A stretch of DNA of 64,000 nt from an uncultured delta proteobacterium. Lineage in GTDB: Bacteria > Myxococcota_A > Polyangia > Polyangiales > Polyangiaceae. Below the pieces are notes generated by a model. That model was not told the origin of the DNA and did no database searches. It saw only the letters and a list, made by a program, of their open reading frames with translations. Made by a program: the position numbers and the translations under genes. Every line of letters starts with the position of its first letter. Positions within the stretch are counted from its first letter, which is position 1. This document shows positions 5,185-60,672 of the stretch, in pieces. The stretch is taken from assembly GCA_963716725.1 (NCBI GenBank), contig CAVQUB010000021.1, positions 384,440-448,439 of the forward strand, given 5' to 3'.

Positions 5185-6254
5185 GACGCGGGCCTTTTAC
5201 GGCCTGCAGTTTCATCCGGAGGTGACCCACACGCGCCAGGGCGGGCGCATCCTCGAGCGTTTCCTGTTCGAGATCTGCGGCTGCGAGGCCTGTGGAATCC
5301 GCGCAGCATCATCGATGACGGCATCCAGCAGCATGCGCGAGCAGATCGGCGACGGCCGCGTGGTTCTCGGCCTGTCCGGCGGCGTCGATTCGTCGGTGGT
5401 GGCGGCGATGCTGCACCGGGCAGTCGGCGACCGACTGGTCTGCGTGTTCGTCGACAACGGCCTGCTGCGCCTGCACGAGGGCGACCAGGTGATGGCGACC
5501 TTCGCCGAGCACATGGGCGTTAATGTCATCCGGGTGAATGCCGAGGACCGCTTCCTCAAGGGCCTCAAGGGCGTGGCCGATCCGGAGCAGAAGCGCAAGA
5601 TCATCGGCAACCTGTTCATCGATATCTTCGAGGAGGAGGCGGCCAAGCTCGAGGACGTGGCACTTCCTGGCACAGGGCACCATCTACCCGGACGTGATCG
5701 AGTCGGCCGGCGCCGCATCGGGCAAGGCGCACGTGATCAAGTCGCATCACAATGTCGGCGGTCTGCCGGACTACATGAAACTCCAGCTGGTCGAGCCGCT
5801 GCGCGAGCTGTTCAAGGACGAGGTGCGGCGGATCGGCGTCGAGCTGGGCCTGCCCTCCGAGATGATCTACCGCCATCCGTTCCCGGGCCCTGGGCTGGGC
5901 GTGCGCATCCTCGGCGAGGTGCAACAAGGAGTACGCCGACATGCTGCGCCGGGCGGATGCGATCTTCATCGAGGAACTGCGCAAGGCCGATCTGTACGAC
6001 GAGGTCAGCCAGGCCTTCGCGGTGTTTCTGCCGGTCAAGTCGGTCGGCGTGGTCGGTGACGCACGGCGCTACGAGTACGTGATCACGCTGCGCGCGGTGA
6101 AGACCGTCGATTTCATGACCGCGCAGCTTCGCCCATCTGCCGTTCGAGTTTCTCGAGCAGGTTTCGCAGCCGCATCATCAACGAGGTGAACGGCGTCTCG
6201 CGCGTGGCCTACGATATCTCGAGCAAGCCGCCGGCCACGATCGAGTGGGAGTGA
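5185..6254 (+). CDS. guaA: GMP synthase (glutamine-hydrolysing), 3' part; 5' part missing and several frameshifts
   Basis: [57 protein letters not shown] and C-terminal [17 protein letters not shown] (6252-6254), spread over several frames. Confidence 0.95.
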
Positions 6255-6406
6255 CCGGAATTTTTAACACATTGATTTAAAACGATAAAATAAATCCAAT
6301 TGATAATATAATCTGCATCGTCAATGGTATTTTTCATGGTATTTCCGAGTGCTGTAAGGCAGAAAGCAGCAATACCATGAGTGGCAGATTGGCGTAATCA
6401 TGGTAT
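6237..6406 (+). repeat. Junction J1 (attL-like): guaA 3' core plus right arm
   Basis: Core ATCGAGTGGGAGTGA 6240-6254; IHF-consensus TAACACATTGATT 6265-6277; AATGGTAT/CATGGTAT doublet 6323-6342; inverted ATACCATG 6372-6379; CATGGTAT 6399-6406. Confidence 0.9.
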
Positions 6407-6444
6407 CAGCGGTCGGCACTCAGATATCGCGTTCTGAACGAGCA

Positions 6445-6517
6445 TGGCGTGATTTAGGGCTTTAAGCACGCCAAATATGACTATAATGTGGCGTGAATAA
6501 GTGCTAGAATCGCGCCA
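6445..6517 (+). promoter_or_regulatory. Two 29-bp TGGCG-N19-CGCCA palindromes flanking a TATAAT -10 box (putative fic operator/promoter)
   Basis: 6445-6473 and 6489-6517; TATAAT at 6482-6487; same arrangement at 31148-31220. Confidence 0.65.
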
Positions 6518-7663
6518 TGAAGTGGATATGGCAACAGCCCGACTGGCCAGATTTTCGCTATGACAATCGCGCGCTCAATGATCGGGAACTTGAATTTCGC
6601 CTGAACTCAGAGCGCCTGGCGGGCAGCTTTGATGCGCTACCGATGGCGTCCCAAGAGGATGCCACGATTGACTTGATGCTTTCCGAGGCCATCAAAACCA
6701 GCGCCATTGAGGGCGAGGATCTGGACAGAGAGTCGGTCAGGTCATCGCTGCTCTCTTTAATTACATCGGATACGCTACCGGACAACTCAGACCAGAAAGC
6801 TGCTGGGGCTGCATCGCTGCTGGTGGACGTTCGCAAGAACTGGCAAACATCCCTGACGCATGACCTGCTGGGCAAGTGGCAGTCCATGGCTGTCCCGGAG
6901 CAGCGCTACACGTCTATTCTGCGTGGCGCATACCGCAACGATCCTTCACCGATGCAAATAGTGAGCGGGCCTTACGGGCGGGAAAAGGTTCACTATGAGG
7001 CCCCGCCAGCGACTCAGGTGCCTGATGAAATGGCGAAGGCTTATCGACTGGTACAACCAAACCAGTCCTTTGAGCGGGGATAAGACAATACACGGGATCG
7101 CAAGAGCAGGTATTGCTCATCTCTGGTTCGAGGTGATTCACCCCTTCGATGATGGTAATGGTCGAGTCGGCAGGGCGATCGCTGACCATGCGCTTTCGCA
7201 GTCTCTCGGCTATCCAACCACGGCTTGTCTTGCCACGGCGATAGAGGGGGATAAAAAAACCTATTACCTGCAACTGGAGAAAGCGAGTCGTGGAAGCCTG
7301 GATGTTAACGTTTGGCTGGATTATTTCGCAGACACAATAATCAAGGCACAGGAAATTGCCAGGGAAGAAGTGGACTTTGTACTGGCCAAGACACGTTTCT
7401 ACGAAGCCTATGGCGACCAGCTGAATGACCGGCAGGCCAGGATGGTATCGCGGGTATTCGCTGAAGGTCGAAAGGGCTTTGAAGGCGGAATAACGACTAA
7501 AAAATATGAAGCGATTACCAAGTGTCCCAATCGAACGGCCAGCCGTGATCTTTCTGACCTGGTTGCCAAGGGTATCATCATCCCGTTACCAGGTGGTGGC
7601 AGAACAACCCGATATGAGTTGACGATTGTTGAACCGGCTCAGTCTGGTCTGATGAGGAAATGA
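6517..7663 (+). CDS. Fic family protein (DUF4172-Fic-wHTH), single frameshift near 7038
   Basis: HPFDDGNGRVGR motif; paralogue of 31220-32365 with one extra G (aaggctt vs aagctt). Confidence 0.9.
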
Positions 7664-7735
7664 TTTTCTTCGCTCTGGAGCGAGCGATTTTATCTGCACA
7701 AGCCTGAACGATTTAATGAATTTCCATTTTGTCCT

Positions 7736-9112
7736 ATGAACGTCGATACACTCAAAGAAAAACTGGCTGATATCGATGCAGATACCTTGCGGAATTTTAT
7801 ATTCGACCTCTACCTCCGCTATCCGGAGTTGAGCGACAAGATCGAAGCATTGACATTGGCAAATGATCCGGTCGCCCTGTCCAGGGTGCTGCGCAAGCGT
7901 ATTGCATCGCTGAAACGAGGGCGGAGGTTTATCGATTATCGGGCGAGTTTTGATTTTGCACGCGAACTGGAAGCGACCCTCGCCGACATTGAAAGCGGAC
8001 TGCTGGAGCGCTCACCGGAACATGCGTTTGATTTGGTCGACCGGTTCCTGGCGACGGCAGAATCGGTGCTCAACCGTGTCGATGATTCTGGCGGGGCAGT
8101 GGGCGAGGTATATCGCCAAGCCGTACTGTTGTGGTTGACGGCGGCTAAAGGCTGGCGGGATGCCAACGTCGACTGGCTCGAGCGGATATATCAGCTGTAT
8201 CAGCAGAATGATTATGGTGTGCTTGATCCGCTATTGCCAAATGCCAACCTGCTGTTGACGCCGGATCAGCTGAAGCAACTTGCCTGGCGGTACGAAAACG
8301 CGTTGCGCAAGGCGTTAAAATCTCCCGAACAAGAAGACAAACTCAATCTCGTGGCCTTGCGTAGCGGCGTGGCATTAGGACAGATAGCCGATGCCTTGCG
8401 TGATCCTGCCTTATACGAGCGATCGGTATTGATACATTCGCCACAGCCAAACAATCTGCAAATGAAATCGATTTGTGAAAAATATTTGCAGTATGAGCAG
8501 CCCGAGACGGCAATGCGTTATCTGAACCAGGCATGGGAGGACCGTTTTGAGCGTGATCGTCTGGAATTGCTGGATAAGGTCTGTGTGAAAACGGGTGACC
8601 GGAAACAGCTTAAAGTGATTCGTTCTCGGCTGTTTCAGAGCGAGCAGAGCTACCCCAGTTTCACGCGATATCTGGAGGCCTTGGACGAGGATGAGAAAGA
8701 GAAAGCGTGTAGCTCAGCAATCAAGCAAGCCGAACAGAGTGGCAATATCGTACTCAGCGCAGATCTGTTATTAAACCTGAGCCAGACGGAGAGAGCTCAG
8801 GCCTTAGTCTTAGCTCGGCATCAGGAGTTGGCGGAGTGTTTTTATGACAGTCTGCTGAGGCTGGCCAAGGCGTTTGAAAAAGCGGATTGCAATCTGGCGG
8901 CTACGGCGTGCTACCGCGCCTTGTTGCTGGATATCCTGGCACAGGCGCGCAGTAAGGCTTACGGCCATGGTGCACGGTACTATAAAAAGCTGGAAGCGCT
9001 GGCGAAGCGGATCAAGGAATTCAAACCACTGCCAACACATCACGCCTTCGTGCAGCAATTGCACTCGGCGCATGGGCGAAAGAAAAGTTTTTGGGCGCGA
9101 CTGGAATCATGA
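7736..9112 (+). CDS. Helical hypothetical protein (DUF6880-like)
   Basis: 458-aa ORF; RVDDSGG.VGEV, ARSKAYGHGARY and HGRKKSFW motifs. Confidence 0.65.
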   Translation: MNVDTLKEKLADIDADTLRNFIFDLYLRYPELSDKIEALTLANDPVALSRVLRKRIASLKRGRRFIDYRASFDFARELEATLADIESGLLERSPEHAFDLVDRFLATAESVLNRVDDSGGAVGEVYRQAVLLWLTAAKGWRDANVDWLERIYQLYQQNDYGVLDPLLPNANLLLTPDQLKQLAWRYENALRKALKSPEQEDKLNLVALRSGVALGQIADALRDPALYERSVLIHSPQPNNLQMKSICEKYLQYEQPETAMRYLNQAWEDRFERDRLELLDKVCVKTGDRKQLKVIRSRLFQSEQSYPSFTRYLEALDEDEKEKACSSAIKQAEQSGNIVLSADLLLNLSQTERAQALVLARHQELAECFYDSLLRLAKAFEKADCNLAATACYRALLLDILAQARSKAYGHGARYYKKLEALAKRIKEFKPLPTHHAFVQQLHSAHGRKKSFWARLES

Positions 9113-9185
9113 TGTGCCGAAGCCTGCAGCACGGCATGGGGTGGCTTCTCGACATTTCCGGTGAGTATCAGCAGCAATTTCTGAA

Positions 9186-9278
9186 CATGGTATTTTTCAT
9201 GGTATTACCGATTAGCAGGAAAATAAGCCATTGAATATAAAAGATAAAAATGGCTCGTTTACAATCGAGTGGGAGTGA
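9186..9278 (+). repeat. Junction J2: left arm plus core, no standard right arm
   Basis: CATGGTATTTTTCATGGTAT at 9186; core 9264-9278. Confidence 0.9.
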
Positions 9279-9758
9279 CTGGCACTCGCAGGCAACTACA
9301 GGAACCAAAAGCACAAAAACTTGCGTAATTCATCAGTCGGCTGGAACTATCTCTGGAATATCGGCGAGCGGAACAGAGGGTGACAGCCCCATCTTCCAAA
9401 TCCTGACGTGGACGTCGGCGAAGCGTTTTGACGTCTGTAAGTGCGGATTTCTTGCTCATGAGTCCCCTTGTTGAATCGGGCCGTCGTGATCGACGCTCAC
9501 GACGATCTTGTGCAGCGGCACGCTGGTCTCCCCGGCGCTCCGTGAAAAGAGTCCGCGTAACATTGGAGCTCCAGTCTGTACGCCAGCGCACCGTAGCGAC
9601 TTCGCCCCGCGGTCGTTGCGAGAGCAGTGTGCAAGATTGTCGCGCTCGAGGCCGAAGAATTCGACGTTCTGACGGGCATCGGTGAGCAAGCGACGATGAA
9701 AACTAAGCTGAATTTCGATCTGCAAGCACACCGGTATTGTCAGGCTGGCTGAATACAC

Positions 9759-11396
9759 CTAGCGGGCCAAAGCACGTGCAACTGCAATGGACGTGAGCGG
9801 GTGGTACTGCCCGAAATACATCGGCGGCGGCACCAGCGACGGTTTGACGAATTTTTTCACCGCCTGGATCGCGCCCAACACACTGTACTCCGTGGTGAAC
9901 ACAATCCCCTTGGGAATCTCTACAAACTGCCCAAGGAGCGCGAAGTTCTTTGAACCCGCCGGCACCACCGCGGGCCGGTCGCCCTTAGCTCTGCTGAGAA
10001 ACTGGCTGGTGCTGTAGGGCAGCAGGCAAGGGATGCAGGTGGAGGTGTCGAGGATCTCATTTTTCTCCCCCTCGTCCTGGTCGAACTGCAGGTGACCCAA
10101 CAACTCCTCCAGAATCTCGCGACCTGTGCACTCGGGCATGGTCTTCTTCACGAACGTGCCAATGTTGTCGCCGCCTAGTGCCGTCACCCAGATGACGCAC
10201 GTATCGCGGGGTTGGTCGGGGAACAGGGGCTGGCGGTACGTGTGCAGGTGCAGGATCCACGGGGACGCTGTGATGGGCAGCGGGCTCTGACGACCCATCT
10301 GGCGCTCCACCAACCACTCGAACTTGCGCTGGAACAATCCGCCGCGAAAGGTGACGGTGAAGGTCATCATCGTGGACTGCGAGATGTCGCGCAGGAACTG
10401 GTCGGGGCGGCCGAAGTCGGGCTGCTTGGCGGCAATCTTCTTCCACAGCGTCCACGCTCCGCCCAGGTTCTGGCTGCCGACCGCGGGCTTGTCCACCGGG
10501 CGGTCATGGGCACCGAACGAGGCGTTGCTGACGATGGAGCCGATGGTCAGGAAGACGAGGTCGGTGTCGCGCACCTGGATAGAGGGCTTTGCCTTGCCGC
10601 TCTCAGTCTCGAGGTGGATGCGCTCAATCCACCTCTCCTTGCCGCCGGAGTGCATTTTGAAGTCTACGTCTGAGATCCTGCAGTTGTAGTGGAAGTTCAC
10701 GCCCTTCTTCTGCATGAAGCGCAGGGCGGGCAGTATAAAAGAATGGAAGTTGGTATAGCGAGTACGCTCCAAAGCGACCATCGTGTTCATGTTTGGCATC
10801 TCGTGAAAGAAGAGGTGCATGTAGCGCTTCATCTCGACCGCTGAATGCCACGGCTGGAAGGCAAAAAGTGCCCGCCACATGTACCAGTAATTGCTGGTGA
10901 AAAAGGCTTCTCCAAAGATGTCCGTAATCTTTGCACCGTCTGGAATCAAGAACTCTGGTGTGACCAGAAGTCTTGCCATCTTCAATTTTTCAGCAGTGTT
11001 GAGACCAAGTTGATATCCGGTGTCCTTCTTACCATTCTCATGCAGAAGGCGAACGACAGTGTGAACTCTGCATTCTTCACGGTTCTTCTGATGGTCTTGT
11101 AGACACGATTCATCATCGTTGTACGGAATAATGGACCACAGTTCTTTGGTGCAGGGATATACCTTGTCTTCAAACATGCGACTGCCTTGCATAAAGTACG
11201 CCGGTTGGTCGTTCACTATCATCTCTGAGGCATCACAGCTTCCTCCAACAAGGTCCTTGTCGCCCTTTTGCTCAAAGATATGGATATTGGATGGATTAAA
11301 GTCTGCCTTCTGGATCAAATACATTGCAGCAGCAATGGAGCCCAAGCCGAGACCATTAAGATAAACGTTGACGGAAGAATCTTCTTTGTTTTTCAT
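9759..11396 (-). CDS. Oleate hydratase (MCRA family), divergent copy
   Basis: GLGLGSIAAA, GGSCD, FAFQPWHSAVE, NFALLGQFVE, VFTTEYSV. Confidence 0.85.
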   Translation of the reverse strand: MKNKEDSSVNVYLNGLGLGSIAAAMYLIQKADFNPSNIHIFEQKGDKDLVGGSCDASEMIVNDQPAYFMQGSRMFEDKVYPCTKELWSIIPYNDDESCLQDHQKNREECRVHTVVRLLHENGKKDTGYQLGLNTAEKLKMARLLVTPEFLIPDGAKITDIFGEAFFTSNYWYMWRALFAFQPWHSAVEMKRYMHLFFHEMPNMNTMVALERTRYTNFHSFILPALRFMQKKGVNFHYNCRISDVDFKMHSGGKERWIERIHLETESGKAKPSIQVRDTDLVFLTIGSIVSNASFGAHDRPVDKPAVGSQNLGGAWTLWKKIAAKQPDFGRPDQFLRDISQSTMMTFTVTFRGGLFQRKFEWLVERQMGRQSPLPITASPWILHLHTYRQPLFPDQPRDTCVIWVTALGGDNIGTFVKKTMPECTGREILEELLGHLQFDQDEGEKNEILDTSTCIPCLLPYSTSQFLSRAKGDRPAVVPAGSKNFALLGQFVEIPKGIVFTTEYSVLGAIQAVKKFVKPSLVPPPMYFGQYHPLTSIAVARALAR

Positions 11397-11464
11397 TTTG
11401 GTGTACCTTTCCTTTATTTATCCTTCTCGGTAAAAATCACAAGACTGACATTGAAGAAGCGTGG

Positions 11465-13234
11465 TCAATCGCCCGTGACAAGCCCGAACTCGCGCAGCAG
11501 TGCGCCGATCTGGGTCTTGTCAAGCTTGTTCATCAGCAGGTTACGCAGGAACGCAGGCCCCGGGACGTCGATCTCCTTGCCGTCGCGTAAGCGGCCGGTC
11601 GCACCCAGAAGCATGCGGATGTCGTAGGTGGAGTTGAAGACCTCCGGCACGCCACGCTCGACGTCAAGCAAGGTATAGACAGCTTCCATCGGCGTTCGCA
11701 CGGAATACTCAGTTGTGAAGATGCAGTCGCGCTCCCTGGACTCCGCGAACTGACCAATGAAGGCGAAGTTGACCGCGCCCTCGGGCACCACGTCTGGACG
11801 ATCGCCAGCCTGGCGTGGCATGAAGAAGGCCGTCACGTACGGCATCATCACCGGAATGGTGATGGCGCCGGTTGCGGCCAGCTCAGGGATGTCCTCGACC
11901 GGTACGCCCAGATGGTAGAGCCATTCCTGGGTGATTTCCTCGCCCGTGCAGTCCTGCATGGGCTTCTTCACGTAGTCACCCGGCTTCTCGACGAACAGCC
12001 CGTAAACCCACACCACGATCTGGTCCTTGGGCTGGGCCTTGAAGTGCGGCTGTCGGTTTACCGTCCAACTGAGCAGCCAGGATGAGTCCCTCGCGGTCAC
12101 GATGCCGCCAGTCACCACCTTGCCGCTGAACGGATCGCGCTTGGCGATCTTCTGGATGTACTTCGGGATGCGCGCATCGAGCGTGGTGACGGTGGCCGAC
12201 TCCCATTTGGTCTCGGGGATGTGCGCGCCGAACACCTCCGGGCGCCCGAACGCCGGATCCTTTGCGGCGATGCGCCGCCAAAGATCCCACGCCGGTGCAG
12301 GACCCACATTGAGATTTGGCGGTGTGTGGTGGTCGCCGTTGTCGGAGTTCTCGGTGAGCGAGCCGATGGTCATGAACACCAGGTCGTCCGGGCCAAGATC
12401 GACGCCGCCTTCAACGGCGTCCCTGCGCCAGTGGATGCGCTTGGCCTGTTTGCGTCCGGGTGCGATGTCGAAGTCGACATCGGTCACCTCGGTGCCGTAA
12501 TGGAACACCACGCCGTGATCAAGCAGCCACTTAACCAGCGGCAGCACCAGCGATTCGTACTGGTTGTACTTGGTGAACTTCAGCGTGGAGAAGTCCGGCA
12601 TGCCTTTGATTTGGTGTATGAAACGGTGCAGGTACAGCTTCATCTCCAGCGCCGAGTGCCACTCCTCGAAGGCAAACATCGTGCGCCAGTACAGCCAGAA
12701 ATTGCTGTTCAGGAATTCCTGACCGAACACCTCATTAATGCGCTTGTTCTCCATTTCTTCGCGGGTGGCCAGGAAGAGCTTGACGATCTCTTTTTGCGCC
12801 TGCTCGCTGAGCGTGAACAGGCCGTCGGTATGCGCGTCCTCGCCCCGATTCATGGTGGCGCGCTGCAAAGAGGAGTTCGGATCGTCCTTGTCGAGCCAAT
12901 AGAACTCGTCGAGTACACTGGCACCCTCGATCTCCAGCGACGGGATTGACCGGTACAAATCCCACAGGCATTCGAAGTGCTCTTCCATCTCGCGCCCGCC
13001 CCGGATGACAAAGCCCTTCTCCGGCTCCTTGATGCCGTCCAGCGCGCCACCGGGCAAGTGTTGCTGCTCCAGGATGGTGATTTGCTTGCCGGGCATCTGA
13101 CCGTCGCGGATCAGAAAGGCCGCGCCCGCCAGTGCCGCCAGACCCGAGCCGACGAACCAGGCCGTTTTGTTCTCTACGCCTTTGGGTTTGCGCGGGCGGG
13201 CGAACGCTTCGTAGTTGCCGTTGCTGTAGTACAT
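11465..13234 (-). CDS. ohyA: Oleate hydratase (myosin-cross-reactive antigen family)
   Basis: Typical start MYYSNGNYEAFARP (ATG 13234), GSGLAALA, GGALDG, RGGREME, FTTEYSVRT. Confidence 0.92.
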   Translation of the reverse strand: MYYSNGNYEAFARPRKPKGVENKTAWFVGSGLAALAGAAFLIRDGQMPGKQITILEQQHLPGGALDGIKEPEKGFVIRGGREMEEHFECLWDLYRSIPSLEIEGASVLDEFYWLDKDDPNSSLQRATMNRGEDAHTDGLFTLSEQAQKEIVKLFLATREEMENKRINEVFGQEFLNSNFWLYWRTMFAFEEWHSALEMKLYLHRFIHQIKGMPDFSTLKFTKYNQYESLVLPLVKWLLDHGVVFHYGTEVTDVDFDIAPGRKQAKRIHWRRDAVEGGVDLGPDDLVFMTIGSLTENSDNGDHHTPPNLNVGPAPAWDLWRRIAAKDPAFGRPEVFGAHIPETKWESATVTTLDARIPKYIQKIAKRDPFSGKVVTGGIVTARDSSWLLSWTVNRQPHFKAQPKDQIVVWVYGLFVEKPGDYVKKPMQDCTGEEITQEWLYHLGVPVEDIPELAATGAITIPVMMPYVTAFFMPRQAGDRPDVVPEGAVNFAFIGQFAESRERDCIFTTEYSVRTPMEAVYTLLDVERGVPEVFNSTYDIRMLLGATGRLRDGKEIDVPGPAFLRNLLMNKLDKTQIGALLREFGLVTGD

Positions 13235-14836: not shown

Positions 14837-14945
14837 CAGCGGTCGGCACTCAGATATCGCCTTTTGAACGAGCGTGGCGTGATTATACTGGTGGGCACTG
14901 TTGATCACGGTGCCTACCCCCATTTCCGAAAGGCGTGTCCTTGTG

Positions 14946-52668: not shown

Positions 52669-52670
52669 CA

Positions 52671-52753: not shown

Positions 52754-52778
52754 AAACTTTTCTCTGCTGGGGTATTGG

Positions 52779-53147: not shown

Positions 53148-53164
53148 CGTTAATCCTCCGGCAG

Positions 53165-53467: not shown

Positions 53468-53481
53468 GTATTCGTAATAGT

Positions 53482-53498
53482 AGTCCCAAAATGGGACT
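53482..53498. promoter_or_regulatory. higBA operator palindrome
   Basis: AGTCCCA-AAA-TGGGACT about 15 bp upstream of higB. Confidence 0.65.
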
Positions 53499-53634
53499 TT
53501 AGCAACAAGTTTTCGGCTAGACACAGACTTGGCCGACATCATCAACTTGGGTATCCGCATGAAATTGTGTTCGAATGAGACATTGAGTGTTTACGGATTT
53601 GTGGAAAAAGAGTTCATTTCAAGAAATTTCTGAG

Positions 53635-53719
53635 CATGGTATTTTTCATGGTATATGTTGTGCGTAGCAAGGCATAAAACATCGATACCATGAGAAGAAA
53701 ATTGAGTTTGGCATGGTAT
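53635..53719 (+). repeat. Junction J10: collapsed element lacking the core
   Basis: Left-arm context (TTTCTGAG-CATGGTATTTTTCATGGTAT) joined directly to the distal right arm (ATACCATG..CATGGTAT). Confidence 0.85.
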
Positions 53720-53769
53720 CAGGGATCTTGAACTGCAGGTGCTTTTGGGTAATCTGGAATCCGGTCAAG

Positions 53770-54287
53770 TGACTCTCGCCATTGACACCCTTTGGGTTTC
53801 TCAGATCCCTTTATACAGCTGGTAACTCGAAGTAAGGCTGCTGCCTCCATTGAGGCATCCAACACCAATCCCTATCTGTTCCGCCGCACTGAGTATTACC
53901 TGTTTGAGCAAGGCCCTCAGCCCGCTTTCGGCCATTAAAGACATGATCGGCTCCCAGACCACGAAGAGGATACATGTCCTTGCTCGTTTTGCGCCGAAGA
54001 TAGTGGAGTGCGGCGTCTGGAGTGACGGCAGCAATCTCACCACCATTGAGGCATATCCCTCGGCCTGCAAACGCTCAAAAACCATTCAGGCTCTGCGCCG
54101 GCCTTACCTCGCGCTCACTCATGCAGACTGCGAGGATGCTCTGACCTGTGCCTTAGTCGCCACTCTGTTTGCGGAAAAGCGGAGTGCTCTTATGCCGCCA
54201 GAGACTGACGTTTCCCCAAACGAGGGCTGGATATGGGTGCCCAGGGACGCTTTTGTTCAGGATGCTGCGTCATCAGACTGCACATAG
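53770..54287 (+). pseudogene. DUF429-like fragment
   Basis: TLAIDT.., IEAYPSA, DALTCAL, EGWIWVP; 5' end missing. Confidence 0.45.
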
Positions 54288-54378
54288 TACTGTGGATCTG
54301 CTAAAGGACACGAGGTGGAAAATTCAGATATATGCTTGAAATACGGCATGAATTCAGGTTTATCCGGGACCCGGTAAC

Positions 54379-54432
54379 TATATTCGGTTGATGTAATATA
54401 TGGCACAGGGTATATTCGGCTGCATGAATATA
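54379..54432. promoter_or_regulatory. Two imperfect palindromes (putative ArsR operators)
   Basis: TATATTCGGTTGATGTAATATA and TATATTCGGCTGCATGAATATA, the second overlapping the arsR ATG. Confidence 0.55.
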
Positions 54433-54777
54433 TCCCCATTAACGCTATACTCCGCCATCGCGCACGAAATACGTCTGCGCTGCCTGCTTCTTCTCCTTGA
54501 ACATGGTGAACTCTGCGTCTGCGAGCTAACGCACGCCATCGGTGCAGTTCAGCCGACCATTTCCCGTCATCTTGCTCACCTGCGTGAGGTGGAATTGGTG
54601 AGCGATCGCCGAGAGGGCCTGTGGTTCCACTATCGGATTCATCCCGAGCTCCCAGCTTGGGTAACCAACGTGTTGCGAGAAACGGCTGATGGTGTGAGTG
54701 GACTAGCACCGTTTACGGAAGACCTGGCCGCATTGAAAAACATGCCGAATCGCCCCGGCGCACCCCGGTGTGCTTGA
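54424..54777 (+). CDS. arsR: ArsR family repressor
   Basis: ELCVCEL, QPTISRHLAHLR, RREGLW. Confidence 0.9.
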   Translation: MNISPLTLYSAIAHEIRLRCLLLLLEHGELCVCELTHAIGAVQPTISRHLAHLREVELVSDRREGLWFHYRIHPELPAWVTNVLRETADGVSGLAPFTEDLAALKNMPNRPGAPRCA

Positions 54778-54844
54778 TGATGAATCGCTGTTTCGCGCCA
54801 TTCGATGTTTATCACCTGTCGTTCGGTTGTCGTAGGAACTGATC

Positions 54845-55381
54845 ATGATGGTTCAACCGTTTAACGTGCTGTTTCTCTGCACCGGCAACTCTGCCCGAAG
54901 TATCTTCGCTGAGTGCTTGGTTAATCATCTGGGCCCGGGGAGATTCCGTGGCTACAGTGCGGGCAGTCACCCAAAAGGTGAAGTCCACCCGCTGACGATC
55001 CGCGAGTTGCAACATAATGGTTTGCTTACCGATGGACTGCACAGCAAGGTCATGGCGGAATTCGAGAGGCCTGGCGCCCCGCAGATGCACTTCGTCTTCA
55101 CCGTCTGTGATCAGGCGGCCGCGGAAGTCTGTCCGGTCTGGCCAGGTCATCCGATGACGGCGCATTGGGGTGTTGAGGACCCTGCCGCCGCGAATGGTGA
55201 TGAACGCTCAAAAGAAGTGGCATTCGCGAAGGCGTTCCATGAACTTCGAAACCGTATCGACATCTTTGTCGATCTTCCGCTCAAATCCTTCAGTGAGCCG
55301 CGTTTAAAGGAAAAACTGGGGGAAATTGGCCGTGTTGCGCTGGCGAACCCCGGCCCCGAAGAAAAGGGAGACGGACGATGA
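54845..55381 (+). CDS. arsC: Arsenate reductase (LMW-PTP type)
   Basis: LFLCTGNSARS, TVCDQAAAEVCPVWPG, HWGVEDPA. Confidence 0.9.
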   Translation: MMVQPFNVLFLCTGNSARSIFAECLVNHLGPGRFRGYSAGSHPKGEVHPLTIRELQHNGLLTDGLHSKVMAEFERPGAPQMHFVFTVCDQAAAEVCPVWPGHPMTAHWGVEDPAAANGDERSKEVAFAKAFHELRNRIDIFVDLPLKSFSEPRLKEKLGEIGRVALANPGPEEKGDGR

Positions 55382-56481
55382 GTGCCCAATGTGAAGTGAC
55401 CGCCAAACGGGCTGCGGGCAGCTCGATGAGTTTGTTCGAGCGTTACCTGACGGTGTGGGTTGGGCTGTGCATCATCGTGGGCATCGCGCTGGGGCACTGG
55501 TTCCCGGCGCCATTCCAGTCTATCGGCCAGATGGAACTGGCGCAGGTGAACCTGCCGGTGGCCGTGCTGATATGGCTCATGATCATCCCGATGCTGCTGA
55601 AGGTCGACTTCGGGGCCTTGCACCAGGTGAAGGAACACTGGCGGGGCATTGGCGTGACGCTGTTCATCAACTGGGCAGTTAAGCCTTTCTCGATGGCCTT
55701 GCTCGGCTGGCTTTTTATCCGTGTTGTCTTTGCTCCATACCTTCCGAGTAATCAGCTCGATGCCTATATCGCCGGATTGATTCTGCTTGCGGCCGCTCCC
55801 TGTACGGCCATGGTTTTCGTCTGGAGCCGCCTTTCAGATGGTGACGCCAACTTCACTCTGACCCAGGTGGCCTTGAACGACACCATCATGGTCTTTGCGT
55901 TCGCACCGATCGTCGGACTTCTACTCGGCCTGTCAGCGATCACCGTGCCCTGGGATACGCTCTTCCTGTCGGTCGTGCTCTATATCCTGTTGCCGGTGCT
56001 CTTCGCCCAGTGGTGGCGGCAACGCCTGCTCAACCAGGGTGGAGAAGCGGTTTTGAAGACGTGGCTCGATCAACTGCATCCGCTCTCGCTTGCTGCACTG
56101 TTGGCAACGCTGGTACTGCTGTTCGGTTTCCAGGGTGAGCAAATCATCAGCCAGCCGCTGGTCATCGTCATGCTTGCGGTGCCGATCCTGATCCAGGTCT
56201 ACTTCAACTCCGGTCTGGCCTATCTGCTGAATCGCCGCTTTGGCGTGGCGCACTGCGTGGCCGCTCCCTCGGCCCTGATCGGTGCGAGCAACTTTTTTGA
56301 ACTCGCGGTTGCCGCGGCTATCGTCCTGTTCGGTTTCGATTCGGGCGCGGCGCTCGCGACCGTGGTCGGTGTGCTCGTGGAAGTGCCGGTGATGCTGTCG
56401 GTGGTGAAAATCGTCAACGCCACGCGGGACTGGTACGAACGCGGTGCCATAACGACCAACACCTACGAGGAAGACAAATGA
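55378..56481 (+). CDS. acr3: Arsenite efflux transporter ACR3
   Basis: FERYLTVWV, AAAPCTAMVFVWS, GASNFFELAVA, GVLVEVPVML. Confidence 0.93.
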   Translation: MSAQCEVTAKRAAGSSMSLFERYLTVWVGLCIIVGIALGHWFPAPFQSIGQMELAQVNLPVAVLIWLMIIPMLLKVDFGALHQVKEHWRGIGVTLFINWAVKPFSMALLGWLFIRVVFAPYLPSNQLDAYIAGLILLAAAPCTAMVFVWSRLSDGDANFTLTQVALNDTIMVFAFAPIVGLLLGLSAITVPWDTLFLSVVLYILLPVLFAQWWRQRLLNQGGEAVLKTWLDQLHPLSLAALLATLVLLFGFQGEQIISQPLVIVMLAVPILIQVYFNSGLAYLLNRRFGVAHCVAAPSALIGASNFFELAVAAAIVLFGFDSGAALATVVGVLVEVPVMLSVVKIVNATRDWYERGAITTNTYEEDK

Positions 56482-56835
56482 GAAAAGTACTGCTGTATGA
56501 CGATTCGCGCACGGCGCTCACCTCACGTTTGTACTTCATGCTCAAGCTCTACAGCTTCAAAATGGACCGGGTCAAGATTCTCGATGGCGGCACACTCGCG
56601 TGGTCGGCCTTCAATGATCTGGAGAAAGACCCGGTCGAGCACCGCCCGGTACGGTGACCCTGAAGCCTGCCAACCCCGATTTGCTGGTCGAGTGGACGGG
56701 ACGTCTACGACGATGTCGTCTCGCGCCGGGAACCCAATGTCGTACTGCTCGACGCTCGTCCTAAGGATATTTACACCGGCGAGGTGATGCGTCACTCGAT
56801 CCAGGGCGGGCACATCCCGGGAGCGGTCAACATTT
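56478..56835 (+). pseudogene. Rhodanese/sulfurtransferase fragment
   Basis: VLLYDD..SRLYFML..VKILDGG; LLDARP..YTGE..GGHIPGAVNI; frameshifted. Confidence 0.7.
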
Positions 56836-56883
56836 GTAATGAAGGTTTGTACGGATATGCATCGTCGGGTGGGTATTGCGAAA

Positions 56884-58501
56884 GGTAACTTATCTAAACG
56901 GTAAAAGGTGTTGGCGCCGGGTGTAGTTACATTATGATGTAGTGGCTCAACATGCAGCGCCATACTGATTGATTTTTCCCCAAAACTGTTCCCAACGATT
57001 AGACCGCTCCAGGGTTCGCGGACTCAGGATGATGGAGGCACCTTTCTCATTCCACTTCATACCCGATTGGCATAAGCGTTGTTTGACAATCATTTTACAA
57101 GCCGCTTCGGTAACACCCGAGCCTATCGGCAAGACCTGCTTAACCAGTGAATAATACCGCATTCTGGCTTTCTGATGAGTGAAATAGGTAACAGCCTTTT
57201 GGAGCTTCTCACGGTTGCTTGTGGATAATTTCCCCACTAACTTTTCTTCGAGCTCTTTCAGTATCCGTCCCGCCGCCCCCTTGAGATGCTTGAGTTTGTG
57301 GCACCGTTCGTCCAACCACTGCTTTTTGCGGGCAGCATCGCGCTTGCCCGGGAACAGCGCCTCACCGGCTTGCGCCAGATATTCGGTCGCATGCCAGAAA
57401 TCGGTCACCTGGATCGAGGTATGTTGGTTCAAAAATGACCCGTTATCCGTCGCACCATCCGCCAAGCCGATATACCGGGCGTCGGGATAGAGTTGCTTGG
57501 TGTGGGCGATTTCCTGGCGCAGGCGCTCCAGAAAACTGGCCTTGCCGTATTCGGGGGTGGCGCCGATATAGGTCGTATGCAATCGCTCACCGGCACTGTC
57601 ATAGAGCGCCACGGTGCCCACCATGGCGATGCGGTAGCCTTGTTCTCGGAGGTAGATCGTGGTGCCGTCCAGGCCGATACTGACCGTGGCCACCGGTGAG
57701 TCCAGGGGCGGTGTCGCATAGTGCCACTGTTCTTCTTTTGCTTGCGCCAGCGCACCCACCGTCTCTGTGACCTTCTGGATATAACCGCGCGACAGCGCCC
57801 GGCCATGGTTGCTTTGCAGATCCGTTTTCACCTCATCGACGCTGAGCTTCGAGTATTTATGCGACAGCAACTTCGCCAGTTTCGGGGTCGCCCCTTGAAT
57901 GATCCGGGCATCGCGTTCCAAGGGACAAAAGGTCGCCCCACCCTGGGGGCTTTGGTAGACATGGCGTTTGACCCGCGTCTCACCGTAGGGGGTCTGGTAA
58001 GGTTTTTCCACCTGCCCTTTGCTCGTCAGTTTGGTGCTGCCCATTTGGATGGGACTGCCGTCGGTATCAAAGCACTTTAAGAGCTCACCGGTGGCCAAGG
58101 TACCCGCTTCGTTCAGGGCTTGCTCAATGTGTCCCTCTCCCTCCAGCATGGAGCGTGTGAACGGGAGCGTTATTTCGATAACCAGGGTATCCTCTGTGCA
58201 AGAGGTAATTTTGGCAGTCATTTGCGTTCACTTTCTTAAGGTAATTTCGAGAAAGTGTATCATGCCAATTGATAAATCGGTAGAATTATTACATCATGTT
58301 GTAGCTACACCCTTGGCGCCGGCGTTTATGAGTACCGGATTGATTTCGGTCCTGGTTATCGGATCTATTTTTGGCAAGGATTGGGACCGGTTGGTGGTAT
58401 TGCTGGCGGGTGGCACCAAGAAGCGCCAGGACGCCGATATTGCCGCCGCGAAAGAGCACTGGCGTGACTACAAGCGCCGGAAACGGCAAGAGGTGACATG
58501 A
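56884..58501 (+). pseudogene. Second addiction-module toxin: 5'-deleted, IS-interrupted, frameshifted
   Basis: 56884-56918 plus 58321-58501 align with 30267-30479. Confidence 0.85.
56919..58312 (-). mobile_element. ISKra4-family IS (transposase 56947-58221)
   Basis: TIRs GGGTGTAGTTACATTATGATGTA / GGGTGTAGCTACAACATGATGTA; 8-bp TSD TTGGCGCC; DGA, DFWHATEYL, PIGSGVTEAACK, GMKW. Confidence 0.9.
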
Positions 58502-58824
58502 TGGCTCTGACAAAAGATTTTAAGGACACCATTCAAGTACGCGCCCAGCGGGATCCCGCGTTTCGCAAGGCCCTGCTGCAAGAAGGGGTCGAATGCCTGC
58601 TTGCCGGTGATGTCGATACCGGCAAGGCAGTGCTGCGCGACTATATCAACGCGACGATCGGGTTTGAGGAACTCTCCCGGGTTTTCGAAAAGTCGAGCAA
58701 GAGTCTCATGCGCATGTTCGGGCCGAAAGGGAATCCCCAGGCCAGCAACCTGTTTGCGGTGATCCATTACCTGCAGGAGCAGGAGGGTATCCACCTGGAA
58801 GTCAAAGCCCGGAAGGTAGCCTAG
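58498..58824 (+). CDS. Addiction-module antitoxin, second copy (intact)
   Basis: 103 of 108 aa identical to 30476-30802 by direct comparison. Confidence 0.88.
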
Positions 58825-58887
58825 AGAATTGCTGTGCGGCAGCGTTCAATCGGCAATTTTTCCGAGCATTTGGCAGGATTTTCTGAA

Positions 58888-59132
58888 CATGGTATTTTTC
58901 ATGGTATTACCATATACATCAACAATTAAGCCATTGATATTAAATTGAAAAAATGGCTCGTTTACAATCGAGTGGGGTAACCGGAATTTTTAAACATTGA
59001 TTTATAATAATTAAAATAATCTAATCGACAATATAATCTGCATCATCAATGGTATTTTTCATGGTATTTCACGCGCGCTGTAACGCAAAAACCAGTGATA
59101 CCATGAGAGGTAGATTGGTGCTGCCATGGTAT
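58888..59132 (+). repeat. Junction J11: full attP-like element (245 bp), core ATCGAGTGGGGTAA
   Basis: Doublet 58888; IHF match TAAGCCATTGATA; core at 58967; right arm to 59132. Confidence 0.88.
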
Positions 59133-59170
59133 TGAGGGCGCTCGGCTGAGTATGCATATTGATGACCGCT

Positions 59171-60409
59171 TTACGAGCCCCAGAGTGTGGACAGGGGAGC
59201 AGCCCATAGGTTGCTACCCAGAGGCATTGTTTCATCACCATCGTACAGCAGCACACCTGCTGTGAACTGATCACCGGACAGGCTGGCGAGTTTTTTCAAT
59301 CCACGCAGATCTCGCTCTTTAACGGTGGCAGAGACTTTTACTTCGACGCCGACCAGTTGTCCTGCGCTGTTCTCAATCACGACATCAACCTCGAACTTGT
59401 CCGCATCCCTGTAGTACAGTAGCCGATAGTCATCATCAGAGGTTGTCGTGTGTTTGAGTAGTTCACCTAACACAAAGCTCTCCAGAATGTGGTCGTAGCC
59501 TGTTTTGTCCAACTGAACATCTTTGTGGCTGATGCTGGTGAGCATGCCCAACAAACCGGAATCGATGAACTGTAGCTTGGGAGTTTTGACCACGCGTTTC
59601 AAGCGATTGCGTGCCCATACATCAATACGTTTGAGAAGGTACATTTGTTCAAAGACACTGATGTAGCGAGAGACTGTCTTGCCATCGAGACTGACTTGAC
59701 CGCCTAACTCGGAGTAGTTGCACATCTGACCAGCGGTCTGCGCCAGTGCGCGTAGAAAGCGTGGCAACTGATCAAGTTTATCGATTTCGGCGACATCGCG
59801 GACGTCGCGTTGAATAATGGCATCGATGTATTGTCGAGCCCAGGTTATACGACGTTTCGCCGTTGGCCGTGCAACCGCTTCCGGGTAGCCACCGCGTAAT
59901 ACACGTGCGACCAGTTCTTTGCCCAGTACAGGAGGGTCCGCTGTCAGTACTTTTCCGGCAAAAATACTGTCTATCCAGTTCGCTGGTCTGTTCTCGATTT
60001 CGCTCTGCGATAAAGGCAACAGCAACAGGGTTTCCATGCGCCCGGCCAGTGAATCCGCAATCTTGGGCAGCGCCATCAGGTTGGCCGAGCCAGTCAGCAA
60101 AAACCGTCCGGGGCGGCGATCCTCATCGACAGTATTTTTGATCTCCAGAAGCAACTGGGGTACTCGCTGGATTTCATCAATGACGGCGCGATCCAGATTG
60201 CGAATCATGCCGACTGGATCTTCATGCGCCGACAACAATGTCAGTTCATCATCCAGGGTCAGGTAGTACAGTCCACGCTCGGCGAATTGACGCACGAGGG
60301 TTGTCTTGCCAGCCTGACGTGGTCCTGCGAGCAGAACCACTGGGGTATCCAGTAAAGCTTCATCAATTCGTGGTTCAATCCAGCGGGGATACAGGGATGA
60401 TGTATTCAT
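59171..60409 (-). CDS. AAA+ ATPase with DUF4143 (second, divergent)
   Basis: GPRQAGKTT, IDEIQ, LTGSAN, KTPKL.F.DSG, YRD..KFEVD.V.E..VEVK. Confidence 0.9.
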   Translation of the reverse strand: MNTSSLYPRWIEPRIDEALLDTPVVLLAGPRQAGKTTLVRQFAERGLYYLTLDDELTLLSAHEDPVGMIRNLDRAVIDEIQRVPQLLLEIKNTVDEDRRPGRFLLTGSANLMALPKIADSLAGRMETLLLLPLSQSEIENRPANWIDSIFAGKVLTADPPVLGKELVARVLRGGYPEAVARPTAKRRITWARQYIDAIIQRDVRDVAEIDKLDQLPRFLRALAQTAGQMCNYSELGGQVSLDGKTVSRYISVFEQMYLLKRIDVWARNRLKRVVKTPKLQFIDSGLLGMLTSISHKDVQLDKTGYDHILESFVLGELLKHTTTSDDDYRLLYYRDADKFEVDVVIENSAGQLVGVEVKVSATVKERDLRGLKKLASLSGDQFTAGVLLYDGDETMPLGSNLWAAPLSTLWGS

Positions 60410-60578
60410 ACGAATACAACATCGTAAATTACGGAATTAAACAACGAAAAAAACGGAATGTATAGGCGATAAATCTGGAGAGAAAAAGGTAGGCATAAGC
60501 CCGGCTAAAAACAGGGGAGAACTTTGAAACTGAAATTGGAGTAATCGTTTTCAGTAACGATTAGCAGGAATTTCTGAA

Positions 60579-60672
60579 CATGGTATTTTTCATGGTATCG
60601 GCGCATACACCAGAAATAACAGCATTGAAAATACAGGATTTTTCAGGCTTATTTATAATCGAGTGGGAGTAG
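60579..60672 (+). repeat. Junction J12: left arm plus core; right arm absent or degenerate
   Basis: Doublet 60579; core ATCGAGTGGGAGTAG 60658-60672. Confidence 0.88.

Follow-up and report, generated by a model that had tools for sequence, protein, structure and literature searches.

The 3' end of guaA is the attB of GIsul2, of an IncP island and of PIME, which are described as carrying a P4-type integrase with alpA directly behind guaA and as integrating autonomously (PMC5704250; preprint 10.64898/2026.01.12.698999). Zhang et al. 2022 reported excision and integration in trans, at the core GAGTGGGA, for the CR2-sul2 unit, which lacks an integrase and is acted on by that of GIsul2 (PMC9376610). 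Att-flanked elements without integration or transfer genes are described as CIMEs (Pavlovic 2004; Bellanger 2011, in PMC5704250), and fifteen islands without an integration module at ssrA of Dehalococcoides have been proposed to be CIMEs (PMC3146451). Here we analysed a 64,000-nt stretch of DNA (the window) in which the attB of the guaA elements is shared by a series of modules. We consider it probable that these modules, at least 11 in number, are non-autonomous cassettes lined up in tandem at the 3' end of a guaA copy and served by an integrase encoded outside the window.

The 13-nt core ATCGAGTGGGAGT, identical in sequence to the end of guaA, is found exactly at window positions 6240, 9264, 14670, 18701, 30941, 32492, 44751, 52501 and 60658, with one mismatch at 40482 (ATAGAG...) and with a 1-nt deletion at 58967 (GAGTGGG-GT). 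The preliminary description had listed cores at these 11 positions, a coreless junction at 53635 and ten core-to-core distances; all of these sites are present and the arithmetic of the distances is correct. The core matches 10 times, always on the + strand, where 0.04 matches are expected, and none of 100 shuffled sequences reached 10. The sites preserve GuaA: every core in the window is followed by a stop codon in frame for guaA (six TGA, four TAG), and in the loci fetched from other genomes the codon after the core is TGA in at least 59 cases, TAG in at least 14 and TGG in at least 4. At 53635 about 161 bp are missing, core included, which leaves a P-arm box joined directly to the distal half of a P' arm; fused junctions of this type occur on at least seven other contigs.

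Each internal junction is an attP-like unit of about 300 bp, rather than the 246-bp repeat initially proposed, consisting of a P arm (about 105 bp), the core and a P' arm (about 190 bp), where P and P' are labels chosen in this analysis after lambda nomenclature. The unit carries six ATGGTAT-type boxes, all copies lie on the + strand, and each cassette holds 1-12 kb of cargo (Table 1). Profile searches of the window using nhmmer recovered 10 full and one partial P arms and eight full and one partial P' arms, with no further copies of either arm on either strand, and a 19-nt arm box has 17 matches against 0.00 expected. The standard P' arm is missing at 9264, 44751 and 60658, and at the first two an ISCR-type left end replaces it. 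Three blocks that lay outside the search pattern, GATACCATGAG, CATGGTATCAG and TGATAATATAATCTGCATCATC, are nearly invariant when the distinct arm sequences of many genomes are compared (77 for P, 51 for P'), and judged from their sequence the arms look functional. As the arm profiles and conserved blocks indicate, both arms of a tyrosine-integrase site are present, in keeping with the original reading of the junctions as attP-like sites instead of attC hairpins; the single-strand folds of two of the 12 junctions (z = -1.0 and -1.4) agree with that reading.

Table 1. Features of the guaA-associated array (window coordinates)
Feature	Position	Strand	Content	Basis
guaA remnant	5195..6254	+	about the last 350 codons	tblastn, three-frame reading, alignment with 9 other guaA ends, Pfam
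attL-type junction	6240..6434	+	guaA end, core 6240-6252, P' arm	P' profile E = 1e-56
M1	6253..9263	+	Fic/SoFic 6517-7663 (+1/-1 indel pair), DUF6880 gene 7736-9112	Pfam, PADLOC
Junction	9163..9300	+	P arm, core 9264-9276, ISCR-type (attLR/terIS-like) left end	
M2	9277..14669	-	two MCRA-family (oleate hydratase-like) genes 9759-11396, 11465-13438; IS1634 transposase fragment 13745-14185	Pfam, NCBIfam
Junction	14571..14863	+	P arm, core 14670-14682, P' arm	
M3	14683..18700	-	three ORFs of unknown family (14946-16975), SEC-C-motif ORF, DUF4143/AAA_14 ATPase 17228-18403 (PADLOC candidate PDC-S01)	
Junction	18598..18894	+	P arm, core 18701-18713, P' arm	
M4 (12.2 kb)	18714..30940	+	two P-type cation ATPases, Na+/H+ exchanger with TrkA_N, MnhE-like, Usp; right end: RelE/ParE toxin 30147-30479, HTH antitoxin 30476-30802 abutting P arm	Pfam, NCBIfam
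Junction	30838..31136	+	P arm, core 30941-30953 (then TAG), P' arm	
M5	30954..32491	+	single Fic/SoFic gene 31220-32365	Pfam, PADLOC
Junction	32392..32686	+	P arm, core 32492-32504, P' arm	
M6	32505..40481		AEP-TOTE primase-helicase, helicase part 32708-33961 (-), interrupted by IS4 (34271-36253); Dam-type methylase fragment, IS66 (37151-38857), DUF4386, small AAA protein	Pfam, PADLOC, NCBIfam
Junction	40380..40665	+	P arm, core 40482-40494 (ATAGAG variant as in GIsul2 attR), P' arm with deletion	
M7	40495..44750	+	ORFs of unknown family (147 aa, 473 aa), ZnuA fragment, ABC-3 permease fragment	Pfam
Junction	44646..45242	+	P arm, core 44751-44763, ISCR-type left end, IS91/ISCR transposase remnant	
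M8	44764..52500		PLD-family gene 45259-46878 (DrmC-like or cardiolipin-synthase-like), AsmA-like 1005-aa ORF (-), beta-lactamase-fold/META protein	Pfam, PADLOC, NCBIfam
Junction	52401..52691	+	P arm, core 52501-52513, P' arm	
M9a	52514..53634	-	HigB-type toxin 53165-53560, HTH partner 52779-53147; pair matches PADLOC models PD-Lambda-2 A and B	Pfam, PADLOC
Coreless junction	53616..53744	+	P-arm box fused to identical P'-arm box	
M9b	53648..58966		ArsR, ArsC, ACR3 54400-56481; ISKra4 56947-58221 (-); RelE/ParE remnant, antitoxin 58498-58824 abutting P arm	Pfam, NCBIfam
Junction	58863..59158	+	P arm, core with 1-nt deletion (58967), P' arm	
M10	58980..60657	-	single DUF4143/AAA_14 ATPase 59171-60409 (PDC-S01)	Pfam, PADLOC
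Last junction of window	60556..60670	+	P arm, core 60658-60670, no recognisable P' arm	
Region right of last core	60671..64000	-	OprB-family porin 61008-62213, polyol dehydrogenase 62327-64000	

The array begins at a guaA copy that is not an intact gene but a truncated and frameshifted fragment. It lacks its 5' part, contains six single-base frameshifts and ends in ...IEWE-stop within the core; a tblastn search with the full-length GuaA from another locus (L008) covered amino acids 177-527 in two frames. At about position 5195 the remnant is fused to a 3'-truncated GMC oxidoreductase ORF (3534-5225). The guaA locus may be a fossil, or the join at about 5195 may be an assembly error. At the other end, the DNA right of the last core has a GC content of 0.46-0.57 versus 0.66-0.70 in the left flank, and no recognisable attR flank was found up to the window end; it represents either the attR flank or one more module, its P' arm decayed.

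The sites belong to the family used by GIsul2. The P arm and core are 87% identical to the GIsul2/CR2-sul2 attR (3,939 plasmid records), the P arm of the junction at 9264 is 95.3% identical over 86 nt to the plasmid CR2-sul2 P arm, and the attL side of GIsul2 in pAB3 has the same CATGGTAT and GATACCATG boxes. Because neighbouring cassettes share the guaA-identical core, each internal junction amounts to a complete attP of the GIsul2 att family. The junction at 44751 is followed by a 63-aa IS91/ISCR transposase remnant (45054-45242), to which amino acids 109-174 of GIsul2 Rcr2 align by tblastn with 64% identity (E = 1e-19).

For nine of the 11 modules, relatives of the interior lie beside att arms elsewhere, and in these genomes the modules are ordered differently; none of the fetched loci holds a relative of M2 or M7. 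M1 is 98.3% identical over 2,765 nt to a cassette in CAWEET010000020.1 that has different neighbours, and in CAVROQ010000019.1 M3 is followed directly by M1. In CAVRBK010000130.1 (locus L094) guaA is followed directly by M3 (98%), while in CAWIHS010000003.1 a cassette 89.5% identical to M10 over 1,710 nt adjoins a Fic cassette. Homology to these four contigs begins or ends at cores. The preliminary description had named an invariant module order as speaking against its reading; instead, order differs between genomes, with the breakpoints at cores. The M6 primase-helicase gene is full length beside att sites in three loci (L005, L033 and L072; 87.6% identity to L005 over 1,658 nt), the left 2 kb of M8 is 92.6% identical to locus L053, and M9a has relatives in loci L038 and L073. 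The combination of a toxin-antitoxin pair and P arm seen in M4 forms the right end in other loci as well. Arms were present in 118 of 142 fetched loci, on at least 94 contigs, at least 22 of which have two or more junctions; the collection scan needed an exact box, so these counts are biased lower bounds. The array pattern is thus general, with similar arrays in at least 22 other contigs.

As the preliminary description had stated, the modules are non-autonomous and encode neither a tyrosine nor a serine recombinase. No recombinase domain was detected in any of 245 ORFs between 6.2 and 64 kb (47, 9 of a set of 19, and all 189 others read from stop to stop with a length of at least 85 aa), and tblastn searches of the 11 modules with two family integrases detected no remnant of such a gene (best E 0.99). 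None of the core genes of GIsul2-type guaA elements was found in the window, where GIsul2 Int, AlpA, RepA, TrbJ, TrbK, TrbL and ResG had no match at E <= 0.1. These results bear on the possibility that the array is a graveyard of ordinary tandem islands, each of which arrived at guaA with its own integrase and later lost it in place. Integrase-less att-flanked elements are classically explained by tandem accretion and subsequent decay (PMC5704250), and such a history would fit the IS4, IS66, ISKra4 and IS1634 sequences, the broken cargo genes (Fic, the ZnuA/ABC-3 pair and the helicase with IS4 inside), the ISCR transposase remnant and the relatedness of the M9b ars genes to those of GIsul2 (ACR3 73% and ArsC 51% identical). 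However, besides the missing integrase remnants, modules of 1.5-3 kb with a single cargo gene and complete arms recur without integrase at other array positions elsewhere, a pattern that independent decay in place would not yield, and the P' arm is a conserved unit of about 190 bp that leads straight into cargo in 51 distinct copies. We regard decay in place as an unlikely origin.

We find it quite improbable that this is a fossil array, with no integrase today, in which the att repeats of about 300 bp are patches of homology for shuffling by homologous recombination. The arms are 75-97% identical between junctions and long enough for RecA, and breakpoints at cores lie inside these repeats and are, taken alone, compatible with homologous recombination too. 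The coreless junction at 53635 and its counterparts elsewhere arose by deletion between a pair of identical 19-nt boxes, so they are not site-specific events, and the guaA copy is a pseudogene. Against this, the conservation of boxes and core in distant hosts (77 and 51 distinct copies), together with the retained in-frame stop, argues for continued selection on site function, and there is direct precedent, from a host deficient in recA, for the GIsul2 integrase acting on such sites in trans (PMC9376610).

An assembly chimera, in which cassettes of co-occurring strains or species were joined via the att repeats and guaA was misjoined to an unrelated gene at about 5195, giving an order of 11 modules that no single cell ever had, is very unlikely: many related records are metagenome-assembled genomes with the same repeats, module GC varies from 0.46 to 0.62, and the meeting of two truncated genes and the clustered guaA frameshifts are odd, but multi-junction arrays are found in independent assemblies, junction sequences differ mutually by 5-25% and are therefore not collapsed repeats, GC variation is expected for acquired cassettes, and ORFs of 900-1000 aa in the window are intact.

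For the array of non-autonomous cassettes that we favour, we infer an integrase, cassette excision and a transfer route as follows. A P4-type tyrosine integrase of the GIsul2 family, whose gene could lie at the array's distal end or at another genomic locus, would read the ATGGTAT boxes through its arm-binding domain and, with an AlpA-type directionality factor, recombine any two cores. Circles with one attP, containing one cassette or several adjacent ones, would thereby be freed and could re-insert at any core-bearing site, so that arrays would grow, shrink and reshuffle; cassettes may spread between cells with mobilisable elements or as free DNA. The proposal that the newest module lies beside guaA met with a weak, confounded trend only. 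GIsul2, the IncP island and PIME probably represent the class of helper involved. A precedent for a distal integrase comes from two loci (L006 and L024), where the junction that closes a cassette (P arm, then core) is immediately followed by an integrase gene. These are the only two full integrases seen near such sites (56% identical to GIsul2 Int), and the P' arm in front of them is of another type, made up of ACGGTAAA repeats, so an environmental integrase matching the ATGGTAT arms was not found among the fetched loci. In at least eight loci full-length guaA is followed by a P' arm; in six of the eight, 1 kb or more is available past the arm, and none of these six has an integrase there.

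CR2-sul2 has the same target as the array, the guaA 3' end with core GAGTGGGA, and is likewise reported to be integrase-less with two direct att sites at its ends (PMC9376610). Its ISCR-type left end resembles the junctions at 9264 and 44751, the latter with an rcr remnant, and a remnant of the same antitoxin precedes its P arm, as in the array. However, CR2-sul2 is described as one unit, its left end a short attLR, inside an island that bears an integrase, whereas the array strings together at least 11 units, lacks an integrase over 58 kb and carries non-resistance cargo. Searches of plasmids and E. coli genomes did not find the full P' arm of about 190 bp that most units of the array have.

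CIMEs resemble the array in their tandem position at a gene 3' end and in being movable by the integrase of another element, but they are defined as decayed ICEs or IMEs, usually one or two per site (PMC5704250), whereas in the array no remnants were detected, and its small cassettes reappear in other genomes. The Dehalococcoides ssrA islands likewise lie in tandem behind one gene, many together and bounded by 3'-end repeats, but have a serine integrase and 20-bp repeats, about half of them (16) have their own integration module, and full attP arms at each junction are not part of the cited description (PMC3146451). As in integrons, promiscuous cassettes, some with toxin-antitoxin genes, form an ordered array that one recombinase would serve; unlike integrons, the array has no intI, attI or Pc promoter, uses double-strand attP-type sites with arm boxes instead of attC hairpins, and has cassettes that are often multigenic, with genes on both strands and presumably their own promoters. 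The novelty is less than first claimed, since trans-mobilisation of an integrase-less att-flanked unit was already demonstrated (PMC9376610) and integrase-less islands in tandem arrays were already described as CIMEs (PMC5704250, PMC3146451). What this locus adds is the cassette-array scale of what are probably trans-mobilised att-flanked units, a CIME-like accretion.

The 13-nt end of guaA (ATCGAGTGGGAGT) is present in the window in nine exact copies and one copy with a single mismatch, all on the plus strand, against 0.04 expected by chance. This core sits on the guaA stop codon and at nine further junctions. The eleventh copy (58967) is one nucleotide short, and the junction at 53635 has no core. 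All core positions in a preliminary description of the array, made from the sequence alone, are matched by actual copies, and the module sizes it gave are correct. To the left of each internal core lies a conserved segment of ~105 bp, here called the P arm in the style of lambda, which consists of TTCTGAGC, two ATGGTAT boxes and a TTTACA at its end. The ~190 bp to the right of the core (the P' arm) contain two boxes in direct orientation, an inverted one (GATACCATGAG) and another direct one (CATGGTATCAG). Arm profile searches of both strands of the whole window identified 10 full and one partial P arm and eight full and one partial P' arm, and no further copies on either strand. The first junction has the order guaA-core-P' and is attL-like, and the internal junctions (P-core-P') are attP-like, arm-type sites of ~300 bp. 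The P arm and core are present and the standard P' arm is missing at 9264, 44751 and 60658 (junctions are named by the start of their core); the first ~70 nt past core 60658 align weakly to one P'-arm subtype and have no match to the arm profile.

Arm blocks that lay outside the search pattern hardly vary between the 77 distinct P copies and 51 distinct P' copies among the matches listed. In each of the 10 window copies with the motif GAGTGGGAG, the next three bases are a stop codon (TGA in six, TAG in four); the same holds for 73 of 77 distinct contexts elsewhere among the matches listed. With an in-frame stop after every core, any cassette could adjoin guaA without altering GuaA. Arm conservation and the kept stop can be read as signs of sites that have been maintained in a functional state. 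The coreless junction is the product of a deletion between the 19-nt box of the P arm and its identical counterpart in the P' arm, in which the core was lost and two cassettes were fused, and the same form is found on at least seven other contigs among the matches listed (loci L014-16, L029, L041, L055, L065, L101 and L111). A promoter and terminator consensus scan of two junctions gave no evidence of an outward promoter in the arms (three promoter-like sites, 3.3 expected), and tRNA/tmRNA and Rfam scans of the window found nothing.

The guaA copy in the window consists of the last ~350 codons (from about residue 177), contains six frameshifts and is joined to a GMC oxidoreductase ORF without its C-terminal domain; ORFs of 900-1000 aa elsewhere in the window are intact. 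This copy may be a true pseudogene, in which case a second guaA should exist elsewhere, or it may reflect a chimeric join or local assembly fault. GC content is 0.66-0.70 in the left flank and 0.46-0.57 to the right of the last core, and the array may extend past the window.

Matches to the P arm and core, at 80-95% identity, were found in 3,939 plasmid records and in every case covered the first ~126 nt of the query; in the two records examined, the match adjoins sul2 and an IS91-like ISCR2 transposase. By sequence, the matched region is evidently the right end of GIsul2, a resistance island at guaA, and of its integrase-less CR2-sul2 unit: the P arm and core are 87-95% identical to the CR2-sul2/GIsul2 attR, with 95.3% for the P arm of junction 9264. 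According to Zhang et al. 2022 (PMC9376610), GIsul2 inserts in the guaA 3' end at GAGTGGGA, a third site (attLR) lies inside the island upstream of rcr2, and the GIsul2 integrase excises and integrates the integrase-less CR2-sul2 via these sites in a recA-deficient host. The window sites have the same guaA 3'-end location with core GAGTGGGA, and their P arms are homologous to attR. The P' arm at junction 18701 (18700-18900) was unmatched in plasmids and E. coli genomes by blastn; its CATGGTAT and GATACCATG boxes are also present in the GIsul2 attL region of pAB3. The P-arm homology and the boxes in common with attL place the sites in the GIsul2 att family. The arm boxes suggest an integrase whose arm specificity resembles that of GIsul2. 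The right-hand sides of 9264 and 44751 resemble the GIsul2 attLR/terIS sequence. To the right of core 44751, at a distance of 290 bp, is a 63-aa ISCR transposase remnant that shares 64% identity with Rcr2 (E = 1e-19); it is the only rcr remnant at these two attLR-type left ends, and the other eight left ends are P' arms without rcr. A search of the whole junction against phages returned seven records, each matching just the P arm of sul2 contexts.

The cargo of the 11 modules (M1-M8, M9a, M9b and M10) was assigned from domain and family profiles, including Pfam, and is listed in the table with the coordinates of individual features. Modules hold up to eight genes, on both strands. PADLOC assigned defence or candidate defence labels (SoFic, PDC-S01, PD-Lambda-2 A/B, PbeA-like and DrmC-like). 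The M6 helicase is the C-terminal part of an AEP-TOTE primase-helicase, here cut by IS4; the gene is found at full length beside att sites elsewhere (L005, L033, L038 and L072), twice directly behind guaA. The antitoxins of the two RelE/ParE pairs are 95% identical, and an antitoxin of this type precedes the P arm in 15 other loci among the matches listed. A 41-aa antitoxin remnant (68% identity) lies between sul2 and the CR2-sul2 P arm in 24 loci among those matches, including plasmid pKPN5 (L001 5843-5965). The ars genes of M9b are related to those of GIsul2 (73% identity for ACR3, 51% for ArsC). Relative to the 98%-identical copy in CAWEET010000020.1, the M1 Fic gene carries two indels (+1 and -1) separated by 210 nt, with 70 codons out of frame between them.

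Features of the guaA-associated array and its modules (window coordinates)
Feature	Coordinates	Content
guaA copy	within 3534-6254	C-terminal part of guaA
Join of guaA to GMC oxidoreductase ORF	~5195	
M1		Fic, DUF6880
Indels in M1 Fic gene	7035 (+1), 7245 (-1)	
M2		two MCRA-family hydratases
M3		ORFs of no known family, DUF4143 ATPase
M3 segment missing from the CAVROQ010000019.1 copy	15011-16056	~1 kb; overlapping ORFs 14946-16198
M4		two P-type ATPases, Na+/H+ exchanger, Usp, RelE/ParE pair
M4 RelE/ParE pair	30147-30802	RelE/ParE toxin and HTH antitoxin directly left of P arm
M5		Fic
M6		helicase cut by IS4, IS66, DUF4386
M6 helicase	32708-36253 (with IS4)	
M7		ORFs of no known family, fragments of zinc ABC system
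ISCR transposase remnant	45054-45242	
M8		PLD-family protein, AsmA-like protein, beta-lactamase-fold protein
M9a		HigB pair
Coreless junction	53616-53744	
M9b		arsR-arsC-ACR3, ISKra4, second RelE/ParE pair
M9b ars genes	54400-56481	
M9b RelE/ParE pair	58312-58824	RelE/ParE toxin and HTH antitoxin directly left of P arm
M10		DUF4143 ATPase

The preliminary description had reported no recombinase ORF. This holds for all 245 ORFs between 6.2 and 64 kb (47 likely genes, nine further small ORFs and every other stop-to-stop frame of 85 aa or longer, 189 in number), none of which has a tyrosine or serine recombinase domain by Pfam. GIsul2 Int, AlpA, RepA, TrbJ, TrbK, TrbL and ResG had no tblastn match in the window at E <= 0.1, and GIsul2 RepC had a weak match (E = 0.003) within another ORF. 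Integrase remnants in most modules, which the same description had considered as evidence against its interpretation, were looked for by tblastn and none were found. The transposases in the window belong to insertion sequences and are of the DDE type (IS4, IS66, ISKra4 and a fragment of IS1634).

We scanned 185,579 species genomes for the exact 19-nt box and obtained at least 142 stretches, a count of sites in which the box is exact. By profile, 118 of the 142 stretches listed contain a P or P' arm; they lie on at least 94 contigs. These are mostly from uncultured Gammaproteobacteria (Chromatiales, Thiodiazotropha, Competibacter, Porticoccaceae, Sedimenticola and others), and some among the matches listed are from Beta- and Alphaproteobacteria. 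In 59 loci among the matches listed, 166 ORFs reach 180 aa, and two of these encode integrases. Each of the two (in L006 and L024) closely follows a P arm and core, and the P' arm in front of it is of another type, composed of ACGGTAAA repeats and not ATGGTAT boxes. They are 70% identical to each other and each is 56% identical to GIsul2 Int; a six-frame search of the window with them gave a best E of 0.99. The ACGGTAAA-repeat P' arms point to a putative second arm specificity within one core family. Integrase fragments were found in three more genome loci (L027, L063 and L083) and in the plasmid loci L001 and L002, all of which are sul2 contexts. In L001 (6431-6535), L063, L083 and L027, short pieces of the GIsul2 integrase lie immediately to the right of the CR2-sul2 P arm and core; they cover aa 1-35 (83% identity) or aa 291-395 (82%), and one of them is on a K. 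pneumoniae plasmid. Full-length guaA is followed by a P' arm in eight loci among the matches listed; six of these hold at least 1 kb past the arm, and none of the six has an integrase there. DASWOH010000226.1 (L074-L076; labelled Rhizobium sp.) has guaA followed by at least three modules, each with an ORF of 484-505 aa without a Pfam match.

Modules of the window recur in other genomes in other orders, not in the invariant order that the preliminary description had set against its own reading. CAWEET010000020.1 has a copy of M1, both arms included, that matches the window at 98.3% identity over 2,765 nt, with differences that are mainly substitutions; there another module, not guaA, precedes M1, a different gene follows it, and homology ends within 3 nt of the cores. 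CAVROQ010000019.1 has M3 (92.6% over 2,795 nt), one core and then M1 (arm 97%, Fic 90%), M3 (98%) is directly behind guaA in CAVRBK010000130.1, and an M10-like cassette adjoins a Fic cassette in CAWIHS010000003.1. The CAVROQ010000019.1 copy of M3 lacks ~1 kb and is otherwise collinear. Interior relatives lie beside att arms elsewhere for nine of the 11 modules among the matches listed, and M2 and M7 have none among them. The preliminary description took the module beside guaA to be probably the newest. The guaA-proximal modules M1 and M3 have the closest relatives (98%, compared with at most 92.6% for distal modules) and the damaged cores are distal in the array, but the difference depends on the genomes among the matches listed and is no test of that idea.

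The most likely explanation, in our analysis, would be site-specific recombination in trans, with a GIsul2-family integrase that acts on non-autonomous cassettes. This postulated enzyme would accrete and exchange cassettes, each of which would leave as a circle carrying one complete attP. The proposal of an integrase in trans follows the precedents of the CR2-sul2 experiments (PMC9376610) and of the literature on accretion and on CIMEs, att-flanked elements without integration and transfer genes (PMC5704250). The modules could also be once-autonomous islands that decayed in place. Apart from the weak RepC match, searches of the window for int, alpA, rep and trb remnants found none, an absence that is no proof against a history of decay, but identical integrase-less cassettes recur at different array positions, and we consider decay in place unlikely. 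A fossil array shaped by homologous recombination between the repeats is marginally less probable again and is at odds with the conservation of the sites. An assembly chimera is very improbable given that at least 22 other contigs carry independent arrays, with 2-5 junctions per contig (these are lower bounds).

Accretion and exchange in trans may be part of something broader, which we put forward tentatively, at rather less than even odds. Environmental Gammaproteobacteria may possess an integron-like capture system in which interchangeable cassettes with a standardised ~300-bp attP build up behind guaA and are excised, reinserted and exchanged between species by a trans-acting GIsul2-family tyrosine integrase. 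The cassettes would carry defence candidates, toxin-antitoxin pairs and metal/ion resistance genes, and the globally distributed sulfonamide-resistance unit CR2-sul2 would be a member of this pool that found its way into clinical plasmids. Were the cassettes active, many uncultured Gammaproteobacteria would have at guaA a second kind of cassette platform, unlike integrons in mechanism (double-strand attP, P4-type integrase) and with the same job of stockpiling and swapping accessory genes. The att ends of CR2-sul2, which is among the commonest sulfonamide-resistance vehicles, would then also have an environmental source and a pool of relatives, and the published proposal that the ISCR2 'terIS' boundary is an att site would gain support. 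The conserved arms are a simple handle for finding cargo in metagenomes, including the defence candidates SoFic, PDC-S01 and PD-Lambda-2.

Integrons have intI, attI and Pc beside the array, whereas the window has no Phage_integrase domain and its array begins at guaA. Integron cassettes are mostly single, promoterless, co-oriented ORFs, whereas the window modules are multigenic with genes on both strands. The attC sites of integrons fold as imperfect single-stranded DNA hairpins, in contrast to the ~300-bp arm-type sites of the window. Single-stranded folds of two of the 12 junctions gave z = -1.01 and -1.36, values that are not hairpin-like. Xer-dependent modules (pdif modules, IMEX) are bounded by 28-bp dif-like XerC/XerD sites, and the window repeats are of a different kind. 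GIsul2 and other integrative mobilisable elements of PIME type have a tyrosine integrase and alpA directly behind attL, as well as replication and transfer genes (repA, repC, trbJKL); the window modules have neither. CIMEs derive from an ICE or IME by decay; they retain attL and attR and lack integration and transfer genes, as the window modules do. Tandem arrays with integrase-less islands are known from Dehalococcoides ssrA islands (PMC3146451), and CIMEs and site-specific accretion are a described precedent (PMC5704250). The family of the sites, the mobilisation in trans of a unit that lacks an integrase, CIMEs, and tandem arrays with integrase-less islands among their members are already known. 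In the literature covered, which includes a minority of subscription journals, we did not find long integrase-less arrays at guaA described, nor the combination of a long array that is integrase-less throughout, a full standardised attP per cassette, a pool common to many environmental genomes and CR2-sul2 as a recognisable member. Like CR2-sul2, which is mobilised in trans, the window modules are integrase-less and bounded by two direct GIsul2-type cores.
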